NCBI GenBank assembly: GCA_018896815.1 | Contig: JAHILY010000005.1 | Span: 1-61,591 of the forward strand | Direction: 5' to 3' | DNA length: 61,591 nucleotides | Source: Candidatus Omnitrophota bacterium | Lineage (GTDB): Bacteria; Omnitrophota; Gorgyraeia; Gorgyraeales; Gorgyraeaceae | Part shown: piece after piece, positions 2,176 to 12,453 of the stretch | How positions within the stretch are numbered: the stretch's first letter is position 1 | Layout: each line of letters starts with the position of its first letter | Program-made: the position numbers and the translations under genes | Notes under the pieces: generated by a model | What the model saw: only the letters and a program-made list of their open reading frames with translations | Database searches by the model: none | Told to the model about the DNA's origin: nothing

Positions 2176-2574
2176 ATGATTTATATAAATAGAGATCTTA
2201 GAAAGGTGCTTATAGAACACTCTAAGGATGAATTTCCGAATGAGGCGTGCGGTCTTTTGGCTGGAAAAGATAACAGAGTCGAGAGGATTTATGGAATGAG
2301 AAATACCGATAAGAGCGCAACGTCATTTTTTATGGACCCGCAGGAACAGCTGAAGGTCATGAAAGAGATGCGCGCTTCTGGCCTTGATTTTATAGGCGTA
2401 TATCACTCTCATCCTGAGACAAAGGCATATCCTTCAGCTCACGATGTTGAGCTTGCATTTTATCCTGAAGTTTCGTATGTAATTGTCTCATTAAAGGATG
2501 GAGATAATCCAGATATATGTTCATTTAAGATTGTAGAAGGGAAGATCACAAAAGAGGAAGTGAGAGTCGAATGA
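2176..2574 (+). CDS. JAMM/MPN+ metallopeptidase (Mec/HcyD/QbsD-like)
   Basis: EACGLL plus HSHPETKAYPSAHD, which fits the H-x-H-x7-S-x2-D JAMM motif. Confidence 0.8.
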   Translation: MIYINRDLRKVLIEHSKDEFPNEACGLLAGKDNRVERIYGMRNTDKSATSFFMDPQEQLKVMKEMRASGLDFIGVYHSHPETKAYPSAHDVELAFYPEVSYVIVSLKDGDNPDICSFKIVEGKITKEEVRVE

Positions 2575-3605
2575 GTTTTGTAGTAGTTGGCACAAATCAC
2601 AGATATAGCCATATTGAGCTAAGAGAGGAAATATCTTTCTCAAAGAGAGGGCTCCAGGATGCCTTTAATTTCTTGAGAGAGACAGGTGTCTTGAAGTCCA
2701 GCGTTATCCTTTCTACCTGCAACAGGGTAGAGATATATGCTTCTACAGGTACGGCTGAGTCTGGAATACACCAGATAAAGGATTTTCTCTCTAGATTTTA
2801 CGAGATCAATGGCAAAGACCTCTGGCCTTACCTTTATATATATAGGGATGAAGACGCCTTAAGGCATTTATTCAGGGTCGCATCAGGCTTGGATTCCCTG
2901 ATCTTGGGTGAATCGCAGATCTTGGGTCAGGTGAACTCTGCATTTCATGAGTCAGGAAAGAATGGCTTTGTAGATCCTTCTTTAGGAGAGATTTTTAATT
3001 CTGCGATCTCATCAGCAGGAAAGGTACATTTACAAACCAGCATATCTGAAGGGAAGGTGTCTATAGGGAGCGTGGCTGTAGATTTTATAAAGGAAAGAAT
3101 AGGAAGTTTTTTAAGTAAAAATATCTTAATTATAGGCGTTGGCAAGGTTACAGAATTGGTTTTGAAGTATCTGGAGAAAGAAGGCAAAAACGTAGTTTTT
3201 ATTTCTAATAGGACTTTTGAACGGGCTCAGTCTCTGGCTCGTCAGATTGGCGCAAAGGCGGTTAAATTTGACAATTTAAAGGAGTATTTAAGTAAAGCAG
3301 ATGTAGTCATCACAGCAACAAAGAGCCCGCATTTTATTATTAATAAACAGATTATAGAAGAAGCTGTCAGTCAAAAACGCTTACTAATTGTAGATCTGGC
3401 TCTGCCAAGAGATGTCGATCCTCGGATAAAAGAGATAGATAGGATAGAATTATTCGATATAGAGGACTTAACGAAAGTTATTCAGAGGAATAGAGATAAG
3501 AAGAAACATGAGGCTCTTAAGGCCGAGCAGATTATAGAAGACGAGGTACAGAGATTATGCCAGGAACTGTCAGGGTTGGGACAAGAAAGAGCCCTCTTGC
3601 GCTGA
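2571..3605 (+). CDS. hemA: Glutamyl-tRNA reductase, short form lacking the usual C-terminal dimerisation domain
   Basis: STCNRVEIY active-site motif, IIGVGKVTEL NADPH fold, LPRDVDP. Only 344 aa. The 3' end overlaps the next gene by 49 nt. Confidence 0.85.
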   Translation: MSFVVVGTNHRYSHIELREEISFSKRGLQDAFNFLRETGVLKSSVILSTCNRVEIYASTGTAESGIHQIKDFLSRFYEINGKDLWPYLYIYRDEDALRHLFRVASGLDSLILGESQILGQVNSAFHESGKNGFVDPSLGEIFNSAISSAGKVHLQTSISEGKVSIGSVAVDFIKERIGSFLSKNILIIGVGKVTELVLKYLEKEGKNVVFISNRTFERAQSLARQIGAKAVKFDNLKEYLSKADVVITATKSPHFIINKQIIEEAVSQKRLLIVDLALPRDVDPRIKEIDRIELFDIEDLTKVIQRNRDKKKHEALKAEQIIEDEVQRLCQELSGLGQERALLR

Positions 3606-5629
3606 AACAAGTGGAAGAAGTTCTAGTTGGGCTAAAAAAATTTCATCCTGATGTAGGATTTGATATTGTTACCATAGATACATATGGAGATATGGATAAA
3701 AAAACACCTATATCAAATATAGAAGGAACGGATTTTTTTACAAGAGAAATAGACCATGCGCTTTTAAGAGACGAGATTGATATTGCTGTTCACAGCGCTA
3801 AGGATTTACCTGACAACTTAAAAGAGGGGATCAAGATAGCGCTTATTACTGAATCAATCGATCCATACGACTGTTTAGTTTCAAAATCCGGGTTAAAACT
3901 TAGCGAACTTCCTCCAGGGGCAAAGATAGGGACGAGCAGTTCGCGCCGCAAGACACAATTGAAGAAATACAGGAGTGATTTTCAGATCGTAGATATACGA
4001 GGAAATATTGAAGAACGTTTAAGATTACTTGATGATCGCGAGCGACGAGTGACGAACGACGAGCGACGAATAGATGCCATTGTTATTGCAGCTTGTGCGC
4101 TGTTGAGATTAGGTTTAAAACAACGCATAACCGAAAGATTGCCTTTTGAGATTCTAAGGCCACATCCTTTACAGGGTTCGTTGGCAGTAGTAACAAGAAA
4201 GGACAAGGTTGATTTGATAAATCTCGTAAAGACAAAGAAGGTCTATATTGTTGGTGCAGGGCCAGGAAGGCCGGATTTAATAAGTGTGAGAGGATTGCGC
4301 ATTCTTAAAGAGGCCGATGTAGTCATATATGATTATCTTGTCGATAAGGCCCTTTTGGATGAGACTAAGCCAGAATCTGAGCTCATATCTTGCGGCAAGC
4401 TTGGCAAGAATAGATTTTCAGGAAAGTCTATCGAGGCACAGGCAAGGATAAGTGAGCTAATTGTTGAGAAGGCTAAAGAGGGAAGGCGTGTTGTAAGACT
4501 TAAGAATGGTGATGCAACTATTTTTAGCCGCCTAAGAGAAGAGCTCGAGGCATTAACTAGAAATAAGATAGAATTTGAAATAGTGCCTGGCGTTACAGCT
4601 GCAAGCGCAGCAGCAGGTTTTAGCGGCATACCACTTACAGATAGGCATGATTCATCCAGCGTTATTTTTTTAACAGGACACGAATCTGATGATAAGAGAA
4701 AAACTAGTATAGATTGGAATAGAGTGGCTGATTTTGAATCCTTGGTTATATACATGGGTGTTGATAGTATCTCAAAAATAGTCTCAGAGTTAATAAAATC
4801 AGGAAAATCCGGCAACACTCCAGCAGCCGTAGTATCAAAGGCAACAGACATAAACCAGAAAACAGTCAGGGGCAAGTTGAAAAATATTGCTGAAAAGGTA
4901 AGGACAGGAGATATTGAGCCGCCAGCGATATTTATTATTGGAAAAACCGCAGAGCTGGAAAAGGATTTTAACTGGTTCAGGAAGAATAAAAGGGTTTTAT
5001 TTACAGGTCTGTCTAAGGAGAGATTCTTTACAGACGGGACCTATTACCACCTGCCTTTGATTGACATAGGGCCACTCGATGACTATAAGGAATTTGACAG
5101 CCATTTGAAGAAAATCAGACAATTTGACTGGATAGTATTTGCAAGCCGCTATGGCGTGGAGTATTTCTTCGGAAGACTTAAAAAAATTGGGCATGACTCG
5201 AGAATACTTAACAACATAAAAATCGCAGGTGTAGGAAATTCTACAAAGGCAAGGCTTCTTGATTTTGGCATTTCAGCGGATCTGGTGCCGCAAAAGGAAT
5301 CTTCAGAAGGGTTGATCGAGGAGTTTGAGAAGATAGATATCAGAGGGAAGAACATATTTTTGCCCCGCTCTGATATATCTGATAAAGGCTTGGAAAAGGC
5401 CTTTCAGAAACTCGGAGCAATAATAGCCACTTCGTCCGCATATAGAAATAGAATTTCCAGAGATTTGCCTGATTTGGACCTGACCAGCTTTGATGAGGTC
5501 ATGTTTACGAGCCCTTCTACAGTAAGGAATTTTAGAAAAAGATATGGAAGATTGCCCGAGCATGTCAAGGCAAAGTGCATAGGGGATGTGACTTTGAGGG
5601 AGGCAAAGAGATGCCGGTTAATAGATTAA
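3557..5629 (+). CDS. Fusion protein: porphobilinogen deaminase (domains 1-2 only) / uroporphyrinogen-III C-methyltransferase / uroporphyrinogen-III synthase
   Basis: N-terminus VRVGTRKSPLALKQ...HSAKDLP...IGTSSSRR...RGNIEERL (HemC). Middle VYIVGAGPGRPDLISVRG...VRLKNGD (CobA/SUMT). C-terminus ...WIVFASRYGV...FTSPSTV (HemD). Confidence 0.8.
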   Translation: MPGTVRVGTRKSPLALKQVEEVLVGLKKFHPDVGFDIVTIDTYGDMDKKTPISNIEGTDFFTREIDHALLRDEIDIAVHSAKDLPDNLKEGIKIALITESIDPYDCLVSKSGLKLSELPPGAKIGTSSSRRKTQLKKYRSDFQIVDIRGNIEERLRLLDDRERRVTNDERRIDAIVIAACALLRLGLKQRITERLPFEILRPHPLQGSLAVVTRKDKVDLINLVKTKKVYIVGAGPGRPDLISVRGLRILKEADVVIYDYLVDKALLDETKPESELISCGKLGKNRFSGKSIEAQARISELIVEKAKEGRRVVRLKNGDATIFSRLREELEALTRNKIEFEIVPGVTAASAAAGFSGIPLTDRHDSSSVIFLTGHESDDKRKTSIDWNRVADFESLVIYMGVDSISKIVSELIKSGKSGNTPAAVVSKATDINQKTVRGKLKNIAEKVRTGDIEPPAIFIIGKTAELEKDFNWFRKNKRVLFTGLSKERFFTDGTYYHLPLIDIGPLDDYKEFDSHLKKIRQFDWIVFASRYGVEYFFGRLKKIGHDSRILNNIKIAGVGNSTKARLLDFGISADLVPQKESSEGLIEEFEKIDIRGKNIFLPRSDISDKGLEKAFQKLGAIIATSSAYRNRISRDLPDLDLTSFDEVMFTSPSTVRNFRKRYGRLPEHVKAKCIGDVTLREAKRCRLID
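4038..4070. repeat. In-frame short tandem/direct repeat (GAGCGACGA units) inside the HemC domain
   Basis: gcGAGCGACGAgtgacgaacgacGAGCGACGAa encodes RERRVTNDERR. This lies where E. coli HemC has only about 3 residues between LD and YDAI. Confidence 0.6.
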
Positions 5630-6627
5630 GAAGACTCAGGAGGAACAGTGCTATAAGAGACTGGGTCAGCGAGACTGTGCTAAGACCCAAGGATCTCATT
5701 TTGCCTTATTTTGTCATCGATGGAAAGGGTGTTGATAGACCTATTAAATCTCTGCCGGAAGTTAGTCATCTATCGATTGACAAATTGCTCAAAGAAATAG
5801 CTAAGGTGGAAAAAAGAGGGATAAGGTCTATTCTTTTGTTTGGAGTACCTAAGAAAAAGGACAAAATAGGATCTGAGGCGTATAATAAGGACGGCATTGT
5901 TCAAAGAGCGACAAAAGCAATAAAGAAAGAATTCGAAGATTTGGTCGTAATAACAGATGTGTGTCTGTGTAGTTATACGTCTCACGGACATTGTGGTATC
6001 ATTAAGGGACAAGGGACCCCATACCACAAGGGTACGGAGCAGGCAAGTGACAAGAGACAAGGGTATATTATAGATAATGACAAGACTTTAAAGATTTTGG
6101 CGAAGATCGCTCTATCTCATGCTGAAGCTGGTGCTGATCTAGTGGCGCCTTCAGCAATGATGGACGGACAGGTAATGTCAATAAGAGAAGGCTTAGACAA
6201 AAATGGATTTAAGGATATAGGGATAATGGCCTATGCAGCTAAATATGCGTCGAATTTTTATGGCCCTTTTAGAGAGGCATTAGATTCTGGTCCACACTTC
6301 GGAGACAGAAAGACCTATCAGATGGATTTTAGAAATTCAGACCAGGCCCTGAGAGAGATAGGCCATGATATTGAAGAGGGCGCTGATATTGTAATGGTAA
6401 AACCAGCCCTTTCATATCTGGATATTATTTATCGGGCAAAAGAGAAGTTTAATGTACCTGTAGCCGCGTATAATGTAAGCGGTGAATATGCGATGGTGAA
6501 GGCATATTCTCAGGGACAGGGGATTGAAAAAGAGTTGGCTCTGGAGATTTTGACGAGCATAAAGCGTGCTGGGGCGGATTTTATAATTACATACTGGGCA
6601 AAAGAGGCAGCGGGATGGTTAAACTGA
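5611..6627 (+). CDS. hemB: Porphobilinogen synthase (delta-aminolevulinate dehydratase), Zn type
   Basis: DVCLCSYTSHGHCG Cys triad, SAMMDGQV, YAAKYASNFYGPFR, MVKPA. ATG 5611 preferred because GGGAGG lies upstream and the N-terminus MPVNRLRRLRR is typical. Confidence 0.9.
   Translation: MPVNRLRRLRRNSAIRDWVSETVLRPKDLILPYFVIDGKGVDRPIKSLPEVSHLSIDKLLKEIAKVEKRGIRSILLFGVPKKKDKIGSEAYNKDGIVQRATKAIKKEFEDLVVITDVCLCSYTSHGHCGIIKGQGTPYHKGTEQASDKRQGYIIDNDKTLKILAKIALSHAEAGADLVAPSAMMDGQVMSIREGLDKNGFKDIGIMAYAAKYASNFYGPFREALDSGPHFGDRKTYQMDFRNSDQALREIGHDIEEGADIVMVKPALSYLDIIYRAKEKFNVPVAAYNVSGEYAMVKAYSQGQGIEKELALEILTSIKRAGADFIITYWAKEAAGWLN
6004..6063. repeat. In-frame repeat-rich insertion (3 x ACAAGGG plus GACAAG) inside hemB
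   Basis: ACAAGGG at 6009, 6026 and 6057; GACAAG at 6049. Encodes KGQGTPYHKGTEQASDKRQG between HCG and IDND, about 15-18 aa more than the E. coli enzyme has there. Confidence 0.55.
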
Positions 6628-7865
6628 GCGACAAGCGACAAGCGACAAGCGACAAGGAGCTTTTTAGCGAAGCCAGACGATTTATTCCTGGGGGCGTAAA
6701 TAGTCCGGTGAGATCTTTTAAGGCTGTTGGGGGAAGTCCTGTCTTTATAAAGAAGGCCTACGGGGATAAGATTTATAGTGAATGCGGCGAAGAGTTTATT
6801 GATTACTGTCTTTCCTGGGGCGCTTTGATCTTAGGGCATACTCACAGGGAAGTAATCAAGGCTATAGAGAGCTCATTAAAGAACGGAACAAGTTTTGGCG
6901 CAGCTACAAGATTGGAGACAGAATTGGCAATGCTTATTGCAGAGGCTGTTCCTTCAATCGAACAGATTAGATTAACAAATTCAGGCACTGAGGCAGTTAT
7001 GGGCGCGGTCAGACTTGCAAGGGCATACACTGGGAAAAATAAGATTATAAAATTTCAAGGCTCGTATCATGGGCACGCAGATTATCTTTTGGATTGCACA
7101 GGCGTGCCAGAGGACTTTAAGAGACATACAATTGTAGTTCCGTATAACGATATAGGCGCTGTTTTAGAAGCAGCTGAGTTGCACAGGGAAGATTTAGCTG
7201 CGATAATAGTTGAGCCAGTTTCCGGGAATTGCGGAGTGGTATTGTCAGACATTGGTTTTTTGCAGGGTTTGAGAAAGATCGCTGATAAATACAACACAGT
7301 TCTTATTTTCGATGAAGTTATTACTGGATTCAGGGTTTCATACAGCGGCGCGCAGGGAATTTTTGGAATAAAAGCAGATATTACCTGCTTAGGTAAGGTT
7401 ATAGGCGGGGGATTGCCGGTAGGCGCCTTTGGAGGAAGAAGGGAAATTATGGATCTTTTAGCGCCCGAAGGAGACGTCTATCAGGCAGGGACATTGTCAG
7501 GTAATCCAGTCGCGGTCACAGCCGGGATCACGACCTTGAAAATACTGAAAGAAATAAATCCATACCCAGATCTGGAAACCAAAACAAAGAAACTATGTGA
7601 AGGGATTATGGCGAGCGCTAAAAAATATGATATAAAGCTGAGGGCTAATTATATTAGTTCTATGTTTAGCATATTTTTTGGAGAAAATGGACAGGATAAG
7701 GGATTATTTAAAAAGTTTTTCCACGGATTATTAAAAAGAGGTATTTATTTTTCACCATCTGGTTTTGAGGCAAATTTTTTGTCAACCGCGCATAGTAATG
7801 AAGATGTAAAGAAGACATTAGATGTGATCGATGAGACATTTGAAAGTTTAAGGAGGTCAGAATGA
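6615..7865 (+). CDS. hemL: Glutamate-1-semialdehyde 2,1-aminomutase
   Basis: [12 protein letters not shown], class-III aminotransferase body, [14 protein letters not shown]-lysine region. ATG overlaps the hemB stop. Confidence 0.9.
6628..6655. repeat. Perfect tandem heptamer repeat (GCGACAA x4) in the first codons of hemL
   Basis: gcgacaa gcgacaa gcgacaa gcgacaa starts directly after the hemB stop (6625-6627). Translated as ...DKRQATSDK... Confidence 0.85.
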
Positions 7866-8995
7866 ATATTCTAATCAATGGTAAAAAAGAAGAGTTAAAA
7901 GATGTTGTTACAGTGGCTAAGCTTTTAGAGCAGAAAAAGATCAGACCTGAGGTCGTGACTGTAGAATTGAACGATAAGATCATAGAAAAGAGCAAATATA
8001 ATGAAATCCAGCTCAAGGACAATGACAGAGTGGAGTTTGTCTATTACATGGGAGGCGGATCCGGAAATAATTCCAAGCTGATGGAAAATGTCCTGGAGTC
8101 GATAGGCAATACGCCCATGGTGAAACTTAATAAGATTGTAACCGAAGATATGGCCCGCATATTCGCAAAACTCGAGTTTTTTAACCCAGGCAGCAGCGTC
8201 AAAGACAGGATATGCCTTTCTATGATCGAGGATGCTGAAAACAAGGGGCTTCTTTCCAAGGGTTCCACCATAATCGAGCCCACAAGCGGAAATACCGGGA
8301 TAGGTCTTGCAATGATTTGTGCTGTCAAAGGCTATAAATGCATAATCACTATGCCCGAGACAATGAGTCTCGAGAGAATCTATATACTCAGGTCTTTCGG
8401 CGCCGAGGTCATTCTTACTTCGGGCGCAGAAGGCATGAAGGGCTCTATTAAAAAAGCTGAAGAGTTACTAAAGAAGACACCAGTGAGTTTTATGCCCCAG
8501 CAGTTCAAGAATAAGGCAAATCCTGCTATTCATAGAGAGACAACGGCCAAAGAGATATTGGATAGCACTGATGGCAAAGTGGATGCGTTTGTTGCCGGCA
8601 TAGGAACAGGGGGGACTATAACAGGCGTAGGAGAAGTTTTAAAGAAACATAACCCTGATGTTAAGATAATAGGGGTCGAACCAGCATCGAGTGCTGTGTT
8701 GTCTGGAAAAGGACCTGGGCCGCATAAGATTCAGGGAATCGGCGCGGGATTTGTACCGGATGTTTTAAATCGTCAGGTAATCGATGAGATAATTCAGGTT
8801 AAGGACAGTGATGCTTTTAAAACCTCAAGGAGATTAGCCAGGGAAGAAGGATTGTTTGTCGGTATATCAGCAGGCGCAGCAGCATGGGCAGCTATAAAGG
8901 TGGCAAAAAATCTTGACAAAGAAAAAAGGGTGGTCGTGATTTTTCCTGATACTGGTGAGAGATATTTTTCAATGCAGCAGTATTTCGAGGCATAG
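7862..8995 (+). CDS. ThiS-like sulfur-carrier domain fused to cysteine synthase (CysK/CysM family)
   Basis: Residues 1-66 are ThiS-sized and end ...[10 protein letters not shown] (8051-8059). Linker SGNNSKL, then [12 protein letters not shown]...NPGSSVKDR...GIGTGGT. Confidence 0.8.
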
Positions 8996-9006
8996 GGAGC
9001 AATTAT

Positions 9007-9864
9007 ATGACTGAATATAATATAAAAGAACTCAAGAGTGGTGGGTTGATGAAGCAGAAAGAAAAGGATATATTTTCTCTTCGTCTGCGTATAGTTGGAG
9101 GTTTTGTCAAATCCGAACAGCTGATCAAGCTTTCGGAGATAGCCGATAGATTTGGTAAAGGATATATACATTTGACCACAAGACAAGGCATTGAGATCCC
9201 GAACGTAAACATCAAAGACTTTGAGAAAGTTAAAAAGGAATTAAACGAAGCTGAGCTTCAGATGGGCGCATGTGGCCAGAGGGTAAGGACAGTAACTGCA
9301 TGCCAGGGAAAGGAATGCAGTCATGGCTTAATAGATTGTCTAATGCTCGCAAGAGAGATCGATCATAAATATTTTGGCATAGGCGGCCACCCTCATAAAT
9401 TTAAGATAGGGATTACTGGCTGTCCAAATGCATGTATTAAACCTCATGAAAATGACTTGGGCATATTAGGCAGATTAAAGAAAAGGTTCGTAAGAGAAAA
9501 GTGTAACTATTGCGGGCTCTGCGCAGAGATCTGTCCAGTAGGCGCAATAGAGGTGGATAAGGACGATGAGAAGATAGTATTTAATGCAGAGAAATGCATT
9601 GGATGCGGAGATTGTGTGTATTCCTGCCCGACTGATGCGTGGCAAAAAAGGCAGGAGGGCTATACTATTTTTGTCGGTGGCAAGATGGGAAAATTCCCGA
9701 AGCTCGGCATAAAGGCCTTTGACTTTATTGAGACAAAAGAAAAGGTCTTTGAGGTCATAGAAAAGACATTAGAGTTTTATAAAAAGTTCGGCAATAAAGG
9801 CGAGAGATTCAGGGAGACATTGGACAGAGTAGGAGTGGAGAAATACAAGGAGACGGTTTCATGA
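9007..9864 (+). CDS. Small sulfite/nitrite-reductase-like protein with ferredoxin insert (Dsr-like/AsrC-like)
   Basis: LTTRQGIEIPNV, CQGKECSHG, TGCPNACIKP siroheme/4Fe-4S-type motifs. Also 2 x CxxCxxCxxxCP (CNYCGLCAEICP, CIGCGDCVYSCP). Confidence 0.7.
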   Translation: MTEYNIKELKSGGLMKQKEKDIFSLRLRIVGGFVKSEQLIKLSEIADRFGKGYIHLTTRQGIEIPNVNIKDFEKVKKELNEAELQMGACGQRVRTVTACQGKECSHGLIDCLMLAREIDHKYFGIGGHPHKFKIGITGCPNACIKPHENDLGILGRLKKRFVREKCNYCGLCAEICPVGAIEVDKDDEKIVFNAEKCIGCGDCVYSCPTDAWQKRQEGYTIFVGGKMGKFPKLGIKAFDFIETKEKVFEVIEKTLEFYKKFGNKGERFRETLDRVGVEKYKETVS

Positions 9865-10097
9865 GTGATGCAGTGCCAAACGAAGTCTTGAACTTGGAGA
9901 ATATAGCGTGTCCGAATAATTTTGTCAGGACAAAATTGAAACTTGAGGAGATGGAAACTGGTCAGACACTGGAGGTAATTTTGGATGATGGCGAGCCCAT
10001 CAGAAATGTGCCTCGAGCCGTAAAGGAAGAAGGCCACGAGATTCTAAAGGCAGAAAAGATAGATAATAAATGGAAGATATTGATTAAAAAAATATGA
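9861..10097 (+). CDS. TusA/SirA-like sulfur-transfer protein
   Basis: 78 aa. N-terminal Cys in LENIACPNNFVRTKLKLEEM and ...LEVILDDGEPIRNVPRAVKEEGH, as in the TusA fold. Confidence 0.6.
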   Translation: MSDAVPNEVLNLENIACPNNFVRTKLKLEEMETGQTLEVILDDGEPIRNVPRAVKEEGHEILKAEKIDNKWKILIKKI

Positions 10098-10107
10098 GGT
10101 GATTACA

Positions 10108-11334
10108 ATGAGTTATGTAAAAGGATTAAAGTGCAGAGAATGCGGCAGGGAGTTTCCTAAAGAGGCCCTCTATGTATGCGAATATTGCTTTGGGCCATTA
10201 GAGGTAGACTATGATTATGAGAATATAAAGAAAAAGCTGACCAGGCAGGTTATAGAATCCCGACCCAAGAATCTCTGGCGCTACAGAGAGCTCCTGCCTA
10301 TTGATGGAGAGCCTACTGACGGCTTGAAATCAGGGTTTACTCCTTTGATAAGGGCAAGGAATCTGGAAAAGGTGCTCGGTGTAAAAGAGCTTTACTTAAA
10401 GGACGACTCTGTAAATCATCCCACGCTTTCCTTTAAGGATAGAGTGGTTGCAGTCGCCCTTTCAAAGGCGAAGGAGTTCGGCTTTAAGACTGTTGCATGC
10501 GCCTCAACAGGAAACCTTGCAAATTCTGTAGCAGCCCAGTCTGCTGTAGCTGGCCTGGAAAGATTTATATTTATACCAGCTGACCTTGAATCAGGCAAGG
10601 TTATAGGCACATTGATTTATAATCCTACTCTTATAGCAGTAGAGGGGAATTATGACCAGGTAAACAGGCTCTGTTCAGAGGTTGCAACAAAATATAAGTG
10701 GGCATTTGTGAATATAAATATAAGGCCTTATTATGCAGAGGGTTCAAAGACATATGGTTATGAGATTGCAGAGCAGTTAGGCTGGAGGACTCCTAAGCAT
10801 ATAATTGTCCCTTGCGCAGGAGGTTCTCTTATTACAAAGATCTGGAAGGGACTAAAGGAATTTAAAAATTTAGGACTGATAAATAAGGTTGATACTAAGA
10901 TTTATGCAGCCCAGGCAACTGGCTGTGCGCCAATTGTTACAGCGATAAAGGAGAATTCTGAGATCATAAAGCCTATCAAGCCCAATACCATTGCCAAATC
11001 ACTCGCAATAGGAAATCCTGCTGATGGCATGTATGCTGCTGCGACTGTAAAAGACTCTGGAGGCACTGCCGAAGATGTTACAGATGATGAAATCGTAGAG
11101 GCAATAAAGCTTTTGGCAGTTACAGAAGGTGTATTTACTGAGACAGCAGGAGGCGTGACACTCGGAGTTACAAAGAAACTCATCGAACAGGGAAAGATCC
11201 CCAAAGACGAAGCAATAGTCGTGTGCATAACAGGAAATGGCTTAAAGACACAGGAAGCAGTGGCTAAAAAAATAGGAAGACCTATAAAGATAAAACCAAA
11301 TATTGCTTCATTTGAAGAACATGTGAAGCTATAA
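10108..11334 (+). CDS. Threonine-synthase-like PLP enzyme with N-terminal Cys4 zinc ribbon
   Basis: CRECGREF...[10 protein letters not shown] ribbon, [11 protein letters not shown] lysine, [17 protein letters not shown] 10108 follows GAGGTG. Confidence 0.8.
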
Positions 11335-11344
11335 AGGAGGTAAT

Positions 11345-11626
11345 ATGTCAGTTAAGGTAAGGATACCAACGCCTTTACAGAAACACACGAATAATCAAGG
11401 AGAGGTCAGTGCGGATGCCACGAATATAAGGAATCTCATCGAGACCCTTGAGAAGAATTTTCCAGGCATTAAAGAGAGGATCTGCGATGAGAGTGGCAAT
11501 ATCCGCAGATTTATCAATATCTATGTCAATGAAGAGGATGTGCGGTTTTTGCAAAAAGACGAAACCCCTCTTAAGGATGGCGATGAGGTCTCAATAATTC
11601 CAGCAATAGCAGGAGGCAGTCAATGA
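11345..11626 (+). CDS. CysO/MoaD-type sulfur-carrier protein with masked C-terminal Gly-Gly (..AIAGGSQ*)
   Basis: [14 protein letters not shown]...[14 protein letters not shown] closely resembles my recollection of M. tuberculosis CysO. Two extra residues follow the GG. Confidence 0.75.
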
Positions 11627-12453
11627 AACTTACAGATGCGCAGATAGAGCGCTATTCAAGACAATTGATATTGCCTAACATAGGCGGCAAGGGCCAGGAA
11701 AAGATTTTAAACGCAAAGGTCCTGGTGATCGGCGCAGGAGGACTTGGTTCGCCTGCGTCGTTATATCTTGCGTCAGCTGGCGTGGGAAAGATCGGCATTG
11801 TGGATTCTGACAAGGTCGAGGTAAACAATCTCCAGAGACAGATAGTGCATTCCACAAGTACTGTTGGGAAGCCAAAGGTAGATTCTGCAAAAGAAAGACT
11901 CAATGCAATAAATCCCGAGATAGAGATAGTGCCTTTCAATCTACGGCTAACCTCTGCCAATATCATGGACATCATAAAGGACTATGATATTGTCGTGGAT
12001 GGCTCTGATAATTTTCCGACGAGGTTTCTTGTAAATGACGCATGTGTTCTGGCTAAGAAGCCTCTTTCGCACGGCGGCATATTCAGGTTTGACGGCCAGG
12101 CAATTACAATCTTGCCAGGTGAAAGTGCATGCTACAGGTGTCTTTTTCCTGAGCCGCCTCCGCCAGGCCTTGTTCCGAGCTGTCAGGAGGCAGGCATATT
12201 AGGTGTAGTTGCTGGGATAATAGGGACTATCCAGGCAAACGAGGTATTGAAATATATACTGAAAACAGGGGATCTTTTGACAGGAAGATTATTGGTGTTT
12301 AACGCGCTGGATTCGAGCTTCAGGCAGGTCAAGGTCCCTAAGGATCCGAATTGTCCGGTATGCGGCAAGAATCCGACTGTTACAGAATTGATAGATTATG
12401 AACAATTCTGTCAAGTGAAACCCAGGTCCGCCGCAGGCGGATCTGATGGCTGA
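11623..12453 (+). CDS. ThiF/MoeB/HesA-family E1-like adenylyltransferase
   Basis: [34 protein letters not shown] and CPVC zinc motifs. Confidence 0.85.

Follow-up and report, generated by a model that had tools for sequence, protein, structure and literature searches.

A HemC-CobA-HemD fusion from Candidatus Omnitrophota with a HemC module of a domain-3-less class

An open reading frame encoding HemC, CobA and HemD modules in a single polypeptide lies near the start of contig JAHILY010000005.1 of a Candidatus Omnitrophota bacterium (NCBI GenBank assembly GCA_018896815.1). The window analyzed here is positions 1 to 61,591 of that contig, 61,591 nucleotides (nt) read on the forward strand, and all coordinates refer to it. 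A preliminary description of the sequence had placed the reading frame at 3557-5629, with a length of 690 amino acids (aa) and a HemC part ending at about E. coli residue 220. These coordinates were accurate: the HemC module aligns to E. coli HemC (PDB 1YPN/1AH5) from residue 5 to ~217, which is the end of domain 1. The features of the fusion gene are as follows.

3557 to 5629, + strand: HemC(domains 1-2)-CobA-HemD triple fusion reading frame, 690 aa; the end coordinate takes in the stop codon.
3557 to 4231, + strand: HemC module, residues 1-225, containing domains 1 and 2 only of hydroxymethylbilane synthase (HMBS) and ending at the domain 1/domain 3 boundary.
3803 to 3805, + strand: codon for Asp83, equivalent to the catalytic Asp84 of E. 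coli HemC by alignment to 1ypn/1ah5.
4034 to 4066, + strand: lineage-specific insert RERRVTNDERR in HemC domain 2, residues 160-170, ~9-11 residues, falling in a gap in alignments to the HemCs of the PDB.
4220 to 4246, + strand: fusion junction, ...DLINLVK followed directly by TKKVYIVGAGPG..., essentially linker-free.
4232 to 4984, + strand: CobA module (uroporphyrinogen-III C-methyltransferase, SUMT), residues 226-476, matching NF004790, TIGR01469 and PF00590.
5045 to 5614, + strand: HemD module (uroporphyrinogen-III synthase), residues 497-686, matching PF02602.

Pfam searches of the 690-aa protein matched PF01379 (the HemC N-terminal family) at residues 5-219 with 219 bits, PF00590 at residues 228-444, and PF02602 at residues 497-686, in the HemC-SUMT-HemD order that had been proposed. 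The CobA module scored above the cut-offs of three models: 274 bits with NF004790 (cut-off 198), 266 bits with TIGR01469 (185), and 171 bits with PF00590 (27.8). The HemD module scored 142.5 bits with PF02602 (27.5) and fell below every NCBIfam HemD equivalog cut-off (best 88 versus 275), as expected for a fast-evolving family. The HemC model TIGR00212 scored 228-231 bits on the fusion against a cut-off of 164, with only positions 1-212 of the 293 in the profile being covered.

The uncovered part of the profile corresponds to domain 3. In E. coli HemC, domain 1 comprises residues 1-99 and 200-217, domain 2 residues 105-193, and domain 3 residues 222-313, with the cofactor carried on Cys242 (PMC3945110). 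The canonical primer is a dipyrromethane held in thioether linkage to an "invariant" Cys on a domain 3 loop (PMC3949521). The domain 3 family PF03900 did not match the 690-aa protein at E ≤ 1, and a domain 3 hidden Markov model (HMM) built from 12 sequences found nothing in it at E ≤ 10, the positive control (P0243) scoring 3.5e-22. The preliminary description had reported this domain and its cofactor Cys as absent, with no GGCxxPIG region elsewhere in the fusion, and the profile, HMM and motif searches were all negative. The proposed check with N- and C-terminal HemC models thus gave a match to PF01379 and none to PF03900.

Domain 3 was not found elsewhere in the genome (1.5 Mb on 114 contigs, 93.5% complete). 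PF03900 had no match in it at E ≤ 10; the same search recovered domain 3 in 11-12 of 14 control genomes. Three further searches of all six-frame open reading frames of 40 aa or longer, by tblastn with three Omnitrophota domain 3 queries, by a custom domain 3 HMM run with --max, and by a scan for the motif G[GS]C..P, returned only noise, and the fusion contains no GGCxxP. The sole PF01379 match of the genome was the fusion itself, so that the suggested search for a second hemC or a stand-alone C-terminal domain found neither. The preliminary description had named two findings as fatal to its claim, a C-terminal domain within residues ~215-240 and a canonical hemC elsewhere; both were sought and neither turned up.

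No conserved cysteine takes the place of the missing anchor. No alignment column exceeded 30% Cys among 123 domain-3-less HemC modules, and six triple fusions of this type had no invariant Cys in HemC, CobA or HemD. Taken together with the absence of domain 3, this shows that the primer cannot be held by the canonical Cys thioether. Two cysteines of the fusion were considered as alternative anchors and rejected. Cys180 (in AACALL) aligns with E. coli Ala172, which makes no contact at the dipyrromethane stage, and is Cys in 25% of domain-3-less and 7% of domain-3-bearing modules. Cys106 is Cys in 30% of domain-3-less modules, and both positions vary among relatives.

The active site cleft of the module is nevertheless complete. 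The equivalents of E. coli Arg11, Ser13, Gln19, Phe62, Ser81, Lys83, Asp84, Thr127-Ser129, Arg131, Arg132, Arg149, Arg155, Ala170, Arg176, Gln198 and Gly199 are all kept, a list comprising the catalytic Asp and every dipyrromethane and substrate contact given in PMC3945110. All of these residues except Thr127 and Arg131 are invariant in 118 short HemCs, in which Arg131 is conserved to at least 90%. Numbered as in the fusion protein, the invariant residues include Asp83, Arg10, Ser12, Gln18, Ser80, Lys82, Ser127, Ser128, Arg131, Arg148, Arg154, Ala178, Arg184, Gln206 and Gly207. Most cleft residues, the Asp84 equivalent among them, are at least 90% conserved in the domain-3-less and domain-3-bearing classes alike, and in Chlamydiota (below) they are at least 95% conserved.

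Around these shared residues the two classes differ. At the base of the active site lid, beside Phe62, E. coli Gly60 is replaced by Asp in 92% of domain-3-less modules versus 2% of domain-3-bearing ones, and Tyr22, on the helix carrying Gln19, is replaced by Glu in 97% versus 15%. Most domain-3-less modules also have Phe for Leu61, Ala for Met82, and Asp for Glu67. The lid positions Lys55 and Lys59 are never predominantly Lys in this class; in simulations of the E. coli enzyme Lys55 contacts domain 3 residues, and the K55Q and K59Q variants have lowered activity (PMC3945110). Arg131, a residue of cofactor assembly, is found in 54 of 54 domain-3-bearing modules and in 88 of 123 domain-3-less modules. 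To judge from the alignments, the substitutions that discriminate the classes resemble an adaptive response to having no domain 3 and to an altered relation with the C1-ring site. The corresponding motifs in the window are Glu21, Asp59-Phe60-Phe61-Thr62 (xDFFT), and His79-Ser80-Ala81-Lys82-Asp83 (HSAKD). We define the domain-3-less class operationally as proteins that match PF01379 only and either end within ~30 residues after domain 1 or enter another domain; xDFFT, HSAKD, and Glu at the E. coli Tyr22 position are its motifs.

An AlphaFold2 model of the HemC module, made from a 118-sequence alignment, had a mean predicted local distance difference test score (pLDDT) of 92.3 and a predicted template modeling score (pTM) of 0.87. 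The structure prediction that had been proposed as a check therefore gave a confident HMBS domain 1-2 fold. Foldseek comparison with all solved HMBS structures gave query-normalized template modeling scores (TMq) of 0.80-0.90 with a root mean square deviation of 1.2-2 Å and 33-39% sequence identity; the next-best folds, LysR and periplasmic binding protein (PBP) type II proteins, scored at most 0.55. The solved HMBS structures matching the module are all at least 281 residues long, compared with ~220 for domains 1-2. The only uncertain part of the model was the insert at residues 160-170 (pLDDT <50 at 164-167). This Arg/Glu-rich segment is not present in solved HemCs or in most short HemCs, being shared only by L010, L011 and L024. 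Relative to the closest relative, the metagenome contig L025, the ratio of non-synonymous to synonymous substitution rates (dN/dS) was 0.20 for HemC, 0.16 for CobA and 0.075 for HemD.

The module shares the domain 1-2 fold and the cleft residues of the canonical HMBS enzymes (E. coli 1PDA/1AH5/1YPN, Bacillus megaterium 4MLQ, human 3ECR/7CCY, and Arabidopsis 4HTG), and its gene takes the same step of the pathway, from hemB to hemD. Unlike them, it lacks domain 3 (E. coli 222-313), the cofactor turn and Arg232, and it has no equivalent of the cofactor Cys (Cys242 in E. coli, Cys241 in B. megaterium, Cys261 in human). In the domain-3-less class as a whole the lid and cleft are remodeled at Gly60, Tyr22, Leu61, Met82 and Lys55/Lys59, and Arg131 is relaxed. 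Because two defining features of HMBS, domain 3 and the cofactor Cys, are missing, we assign the HemC part of the fusion to a variant class.

This class is large. Among 40 related genomes, HemC N-terminal domains were found in 22 and domain 3 in only three; the rest had stand-alone reading frames of ~217-241 aa. All of these short frames stop at the point where domain 3 would follow domain 1; the three long ones run on into ...GGGC(R/Q)(V/L)P.... A sample of 151 genomes of the phylum contained PF01379 in 86 genomes, PF03900 in 51, and the short form only in 35. The 120 best database matches to the module matched PF01379 only and were 208-262 aa in length, save three 391-aa fusions to an HD domain. 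An exhaustive phmmer search of 1.84 billion representatives returned 14,366 matches, and the best 150 representative clusters (at 50% identity) were classified by architecture. Domain 3 was absent from 97 of these 150: 32 were stand-alone or had another partner, 28 were HemA-HemC, 22 HemC-CobA-HemD, 10 HemC-HemD and 5 HemC-CobA. The domain-3-bearing clusters were 41 canonical HemCs, 10 HemC-domain 3-HemD, 1 HemA-HemC-domain 3, and 1 HemC-domain 3-CobA-HemD.

The phylogeny of the N-terminal module was examined with a quick IQ-TREE maximum likelihood tree, which is unrooted. One subtree holds all 54 domain-3-bearing sequences together with four domain-3-less rows, and the other 93 domain-3-less sequences lie outside it. 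One of the four (P0338) is possibly a truncated call, because its cluster has a 315-aa member. The tree may reflect a single loss or a single gain of domain 3.

The class extends to Chlamydiota. Scanning an alignment of a distant domain-3-less clade against named genomes gave 459 relatives, of which the best 80 loci (L084-L163) were analyzed. They are mostly labeled Protochlamydia, Parachlamydiaceae, Waddliaceae (including Waddlia chondrophila), Simkaniaceae, Rhabdochlamydiaceae or unspecified Chlamydiae; approximately 10 are labeled Verrucomicrobia, one Acidobacteria, and approximately 10 have no taxon. None of the 80 loci had a domain 3 signal within 3 kb either side of hemC, and no alternative hemC was found in them. 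The unfused genes end 6-31 residues past the N-terminal module in 58 of 60 cases, and the remaining 20 of the 80 are HemC-HemD fusions. The conserved neighbor is hemD, which in L084 lies directly downstream and overlaps hemC. A conserved small Cys-bearing neighbor was sought across the 80 loci and not found; only hemD, radA, rnc, sodA, accD and dut turned up, along with antisense shadow reading frames. In place of a hem operon, the hemC-hemD pair is surrounded by radA, rnc, sodA, accD and dut. The sole Cys-rich column in Chlamydiota (86% Cys, residue 74 of the fusion protein) is Ile in the fusion, and this Cys was not found in Omnitrophota.

The chlamydial short HemCs share the cleft residues, DFFT and HSAKD with the HemC module of the fusion. 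They form a separate, well-supported branch and occur with hemD alone, fused or following, not with cobA-hemD. Their best model is NF002202 (PRK01066), a 241-position "hydroxymethylbilane synthase" equivalog that is likewise domain-3-less, with scores of 228-262 bits (trusted cut-off 251), indicating that the short form has already been modeled and named by curators. The HemC module of the fusion aligns over positions 20-225 of this model with 207 bits, and the stand-alone short HemC P0121 scores 195 bits, both under the cut-off of 251; the module scores higher on TIGR00212. We conclude that the lack of domain 3 is inherited within a large HemC clade, made up mostly of stand-alone proteins of ~210-240 aa, in Omnitrophota and Chlamydiota. 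The preliminary description had presented the protein as a fusion from which domain 3 was deleted. The absence of the domain stands; its deletion upon fusion is not supported, since stand-alone short HemCs are widespread.

The fusion itself is of secondary origin. L025 has the same operon, and its products are 80% (hemC) and 85% (cobA-hemD) identical to the corresponding parts of the fusion. There, hemC is a gene of its own that encodes 209 aa and ends 1 nt ahead of the cobA ATG, in another frame. At the junction the window is 11 nt longer than L025, reads through in frame, and has many substitutions. The junction lies in a tract that diverges from L025:

3976 to 4875, + strand: divergent (mosaic) tract relative to L025, 64-83% nucleotide identity, containing the hemC 3' end, the junction and the greater part of cobA.

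Nucleotide identity to L025 in the flanks is 95-98% for hemA and 93-97% for hemD and hemB. As the junction is well within 3976-4875, it is in imported or divergent DNA and not at a breakpoint. The remainder of the operon is also a mosaic relative to L025, blocks of 93-99% identity alternating with blocks of 53-85%, the latter also at ~5926-6075, 6376-6708 and 7009-9400. The pattern suggests recombination between related populations or strain mixing in the assembly.

Domain-3-less triple fusions form six clusters at 90% identity, with linkers of 0 to ~47 residues. Among these, P0004 has the same sequence in two independent assemblies, with an operon in the order PHO4-JAB-hemA-fusion-hemB-hemL-ThiS/CysK-SIR. 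In the tree of the N-terminal module the fusion falls in a clade of eight (Shimodaira-Hasegawa-like approximate likelihood ratio test (SH-aLRT) support 98) that mixes stand-alone, HemA-HemC, HemC-HemD and triple fusion forms, and a separate clade of 26 (support 97) consists almost wholly of triple fusions. The occurrence of triple fusions in separate clades, and of an unfused closest relative, indicates that the fusion is secondary and recurrent. Recurrence would be favored by tight gene packing, which is seen here and in L025 in the 49-nt overlap of hemA and hemC.

Residues 226-690 have the domain order of the CobA-HemD bifunctional enzyme (~467 aa) that is common in Omnitrophota and other anaerobes, and share 85% identity with the unfused P0003 and 57-76% with more than 100 other CobA-HemD proteins. 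Unlike that enzyme, the window protein has a short HemC joined upstream in frame and with no linker. The same HemC-CobA-HemD order is found in P0243 (797 aa, named as a Firmicutes protein, "Senegalia sp.") and P0417 (848 aa). These two proteins keep PF03900/domain 3, sit in the domain-3-bearing subtree, and are ~100 residues longer than the window protein. A further precedent for fusion is the Leptospira interrogans HemC-HemD protein (Guegan et al. 2003), which is cited in PMC8698207 and reported to have both activities. It has no CobA and, to judge by its description and size, joins full-length enzymes. Among the best 150 of the 14,366 matches, the ten domain-3-bearing HemC-HemD clusters are ~550-600 aa long and the ten domain-3-less ones ~426-555 aa.

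The fusion gene lies in a run of genes for early tetrapyrrole synthesis that is followed by a sulfite reductase gene:

2571 to 3605, + strand: hemA (glutamyl-tRNA reductase, short 344-aa form), matching PF05201 (GlutR_N) and PF01488.
5575 to 6627, + strand: hemB (5-aminolevulinate (ALA) dehydratase), matching PF00490 with 474 bits; the listed GTG start at 5575 is within the end of the fusion gene.
6615 to 7865, + strand: hemL (glutamate-1-semialdehyde aminomutase), matching PF00202; in the same place in L025, L082 and L083.
9007 to 9864, + strand: small siroheme-type sulfite/nitrite reductase with a ferredoxin insert, matching PF01077, PF03460 and Fer4.

The last 49 nt of hemA overlap the start of hemC, and hemA of L025 has the same length and overlap. 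In the hemA product the domain scan found GlutR_N and the NADPH domain and reported no C-terminal dimerization domain. The true start of hemB is probably the ATG at 5611, giving a 19-nt overlap with the fusion gene; the 339-aa L025 orthologue and the start of the Pfam match fit this position. The reductase at 9007-9864 is the only NIR_SIR match of the genome and the only visible client of the pathway. No uroporphyrinogen decarboxylase (URO-D) was found in the genome, so that the pathway visibly serves to supply siroheme for reducing sulfite. The hem genes are embedded in a sulfur assimilation cluster built on protein thiocarboxylate chemistry (483-2574 and 7862-12453). This cluster encodes a 3'-phosphoadenosine 5'-phosphosulfate (PAPS) reductase, a PHO4/PiT-family transporter that may be a sulfate permease, a deubiquitinase-like JAB protease, a protein that joins ThiS to CysK/M, the small sulfite reductase with its ferredoxin insert, another PALP enzyme, ThiF/MoeB, and a free ThiS/MoaD-like protein.

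The distribution of hemB follows that of hemC. In the 151-genome sample, hemB was present in all 35 genomes with the short HemC only, in 49 of the 51 long-form genomes, and in none of the 65 that lack HemC. As related genomes are not independent, this co-retention is descriptive and not statistical.

Taking the cleft, the fold, the selection, the gene context and the co-retention with hemB together, we consider it likely that the protein is an active trifunctional enzyme of siroheme synthesis with a HemC module that works without the canonical Cys-linked cofactor. The HemC module would condense porphobilinogen supplied by the neighboring HemB into a linear tetrapyrrole, the HemD module would cyclize this to uroporphyrinogen III, and the CobA module would methylate uroporphyrinogen III to precorrin-2, the end product serving the sulfite reductase of the same sulfur assimilation operon. 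The chain would be built in the same cleft by the same acid-base chemistry as in the canonical enzymes. The primer may be held non-covalently, the first substrate may act as primer, or a residue other than cysteine may be the anchor, and the remodeled lid and cleft residues would compensate for the missing domain. Fusion plausibly helps to pass the unstable product to HemD. Of the three explanations offered in the preliminary description, that the cofactor attaches differently is the closest to this reading, which we infer and would widen to include an enzyme that does not use the cofactor. A more specific proposal, which we put forward tentatively as a little less probable than its opposite, is that the domain-3-less HemCs are primer-independent polymerases. 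They would make hydroxymethylbilane, or hand a bilane straight to HemD, without a covalent dipyrromethane cofactor, the acidic residues at Gly60 in the base of the lid (Asp) and at Tyr22 on helix 1 (Glu) having taken over from domain 3 the positioning and the control of chain length.

Several observations weigh against an active siroheme-synthesis enzyme of this kind. In human HMBS no replacement of the cofactor Cys is tolerated and almost every truncation is null (PMC10577081), and the E. coli R131L and R132L variants are blocked in cofactor binding (PMC3945110). Since domain 3 and its Cys are essential in the enzymes that have been studied, a working domain-3-less enzyme needs a compensation that is unproven, and our literature search found no paper, biochemical or structural, on a domain-3-less HemC. 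The siroheme pathway is not visibly complete, because no recognizable SirC/CysG-N, CbiX/CbiK or SirB, and hence neither a precorrin-2 dehydrogenase nor a sirohydrochlorin ferrochelatase, was found in the 93.5% complete genome; that level of completeness also leaves room for a missed gene. An AlphaFold model of the whole fusion (six sequences) had a pTM of only 0.38 with a pLDDT of 72 and so says nothing about how the modules pack. Finally, no other record of the exact 690-aa protein was found in the collection searched. With regard to SirC, a weak NAD_binding_7 match on contig C15 was considered and rejected as belonging to a thioredoxin reductase-like flavoprotein; the only NAD_binding_7 match above the cut-off in the genome is within hemA. 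No relevant paper on siroheme synthesis in Omnitrophota was found in the literature search.

The essential role of domain 3 in studied enzymes could be reconciled with its absence here if another protein supplied the Cys hold on the primer and closed the cleft, either a diverged stand-alone domain 3 or a docking HemD, CobA or HemA. The gene arrangement is suggestive in this respect. Domain-3-less hemC is nearly always adjacent to, overlapping or fused with other hem genes: hemD is the conserved neighbor in the 80 chlamydial loci, 20 of them fused, and in Omnitrophota the partners are cobA-hemD or hemA. In the window, CobA starts exactly where domain 3 would, without a linker, and it is possible that HemD or CobA docks at the vacant domain 3 site. 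However, hemC-hemD adjacency is usual for canonical hemC too, as in the E. coli hemCD and B. subtilis hemAXCDBL operons, and so does not discriminate. Fusion may be to HemA, an HD domain, CobA or HemD, and many members are not fused at all, so that no single partner domain is required. The lack of an invariant cysteine in the six triple fusions also speaks against provision by another protein, and no conserved small Cys-bearing neighbor was found. Provision of domain 3 in trans, the second explanation of the preliminary description, found no support in this genome, where PF03900 and the custom HMM gave no signal, in the 35 short-only genomes of the phylum, or within 3 kb of hemC in the 80 chlamydial loci. 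We regard it as unlikely.

Were the module not an HMBS at all, it might bind porphobilinogen or bilane without catalysis, serve as a scaffold, or form an altered product, the tetrapyrrole being made in another way or no siroheme being made. The essentiality of domain 3 and its Cys in every enzyme studied is in keeping with this, and with SirC and SirB/CbiX/CbiK not found the pathway is incomplete in any case. The catalytic Asp and the substrate-binding Arg and Ser residues are invariant in the class, which would be unexpected for a mere scaffold, and the dN/dS of 0.2 points to purifying selection. The gene sits between hemA and hemB/hemL, together with cobA and hemD and in a genome with no other hemC; hemB is retained in every short-HemC-only genome of the 151-genome sample; and no alternative hemC turned up in the loci examined from Chlamydiota, whose HemCs belong to this class. 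The non-catalytic explanation of the preliminary description is disfavored on these grounds, and the module is quite improbably anything other than an HMBS. A different question is whether the in-frame fusion is an assembly or indel artifact, the real genes being a stand-alone short hemC followed by cobA-hemD. The unfused arrangement in L025, with stop and start 1 nt apart in different frames, would allow this, strain mixing during metagenome assembly could explain why the junction tract is far more divergent than its flanks, and the collection searched holds no other record of the exact 690-aa protein. Against this, the junction is deep within the divergent tract and not at a breakpoint, the window and L025 differ there by 11 nt in length and by many substitutions and not by a single homopolymer slip, domain-3-less triple fusions are common (six clusters at 90% identity, 22 at 50% among the best 150), and the P0004 fusion recurs unchanged in a second assembly. 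An artifact is thus very improbable, and the finding of a domain-3-less HemC would stand even if the fusion were artifactual.

Published work on HMBS describes as invariant both the three-domain architecture and the dipyrromethane cofactor linked to Cys (PMC3949521, PMC3945110). The domain-3-less class is a large natural clade spanning Omnitrophota and Chlamydiota that has neither domain 3 nor the Cys, keeps its catalytic cleft under selection, and is retained where the substrate is made. If the enzymes are active, they must hold the primer in a different mode or use none, which bears on chain length control and on the transfer of an unstable product. If the primer-independent proposal is true, they would represent a second mechanism for a textbook reaction held to depend universally on an "invariant" Cys-bound cofactor. 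The class is present in public databases, its chlamydial branch has an NCBIfam model, and it is apparently unstudied; its genes carry the plain name "hydroxymethylbilane synthase", which affects pathway annotation. To this the present analysis adds the origin of the fusion, the census of architectures, the class-discriminating residues, the co-retention of hemB and an independent confirmation of the chlamydial link. The question is also raised whether the chlamydial enzyme is distinct enough from the human one for study as a separate target. The fusion is less remarkable, being one of many recurrent joins among overlapping hem genes, and offers a single polypeptide suited to the study of channeling from porphobilinogen to precorrin-2.

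Two further arrangements were seen in Omnitrophota. Some members of the phylum join an HD domain (PF01966) to the short HemC or to CobA-HemD (P0152, P0181, P0232, P0244 and P0245, 388-391 aa; P0257, 645 aa). One genome of the same class (G151), which could allow a natural comparison of the two forms, has both a canonical hemC (334-aa frame) and a short hemC (230-aa frame), on contigs C45 and C28 and each adjoining its own hemB; either the double set is genuine or the bin is mixed.

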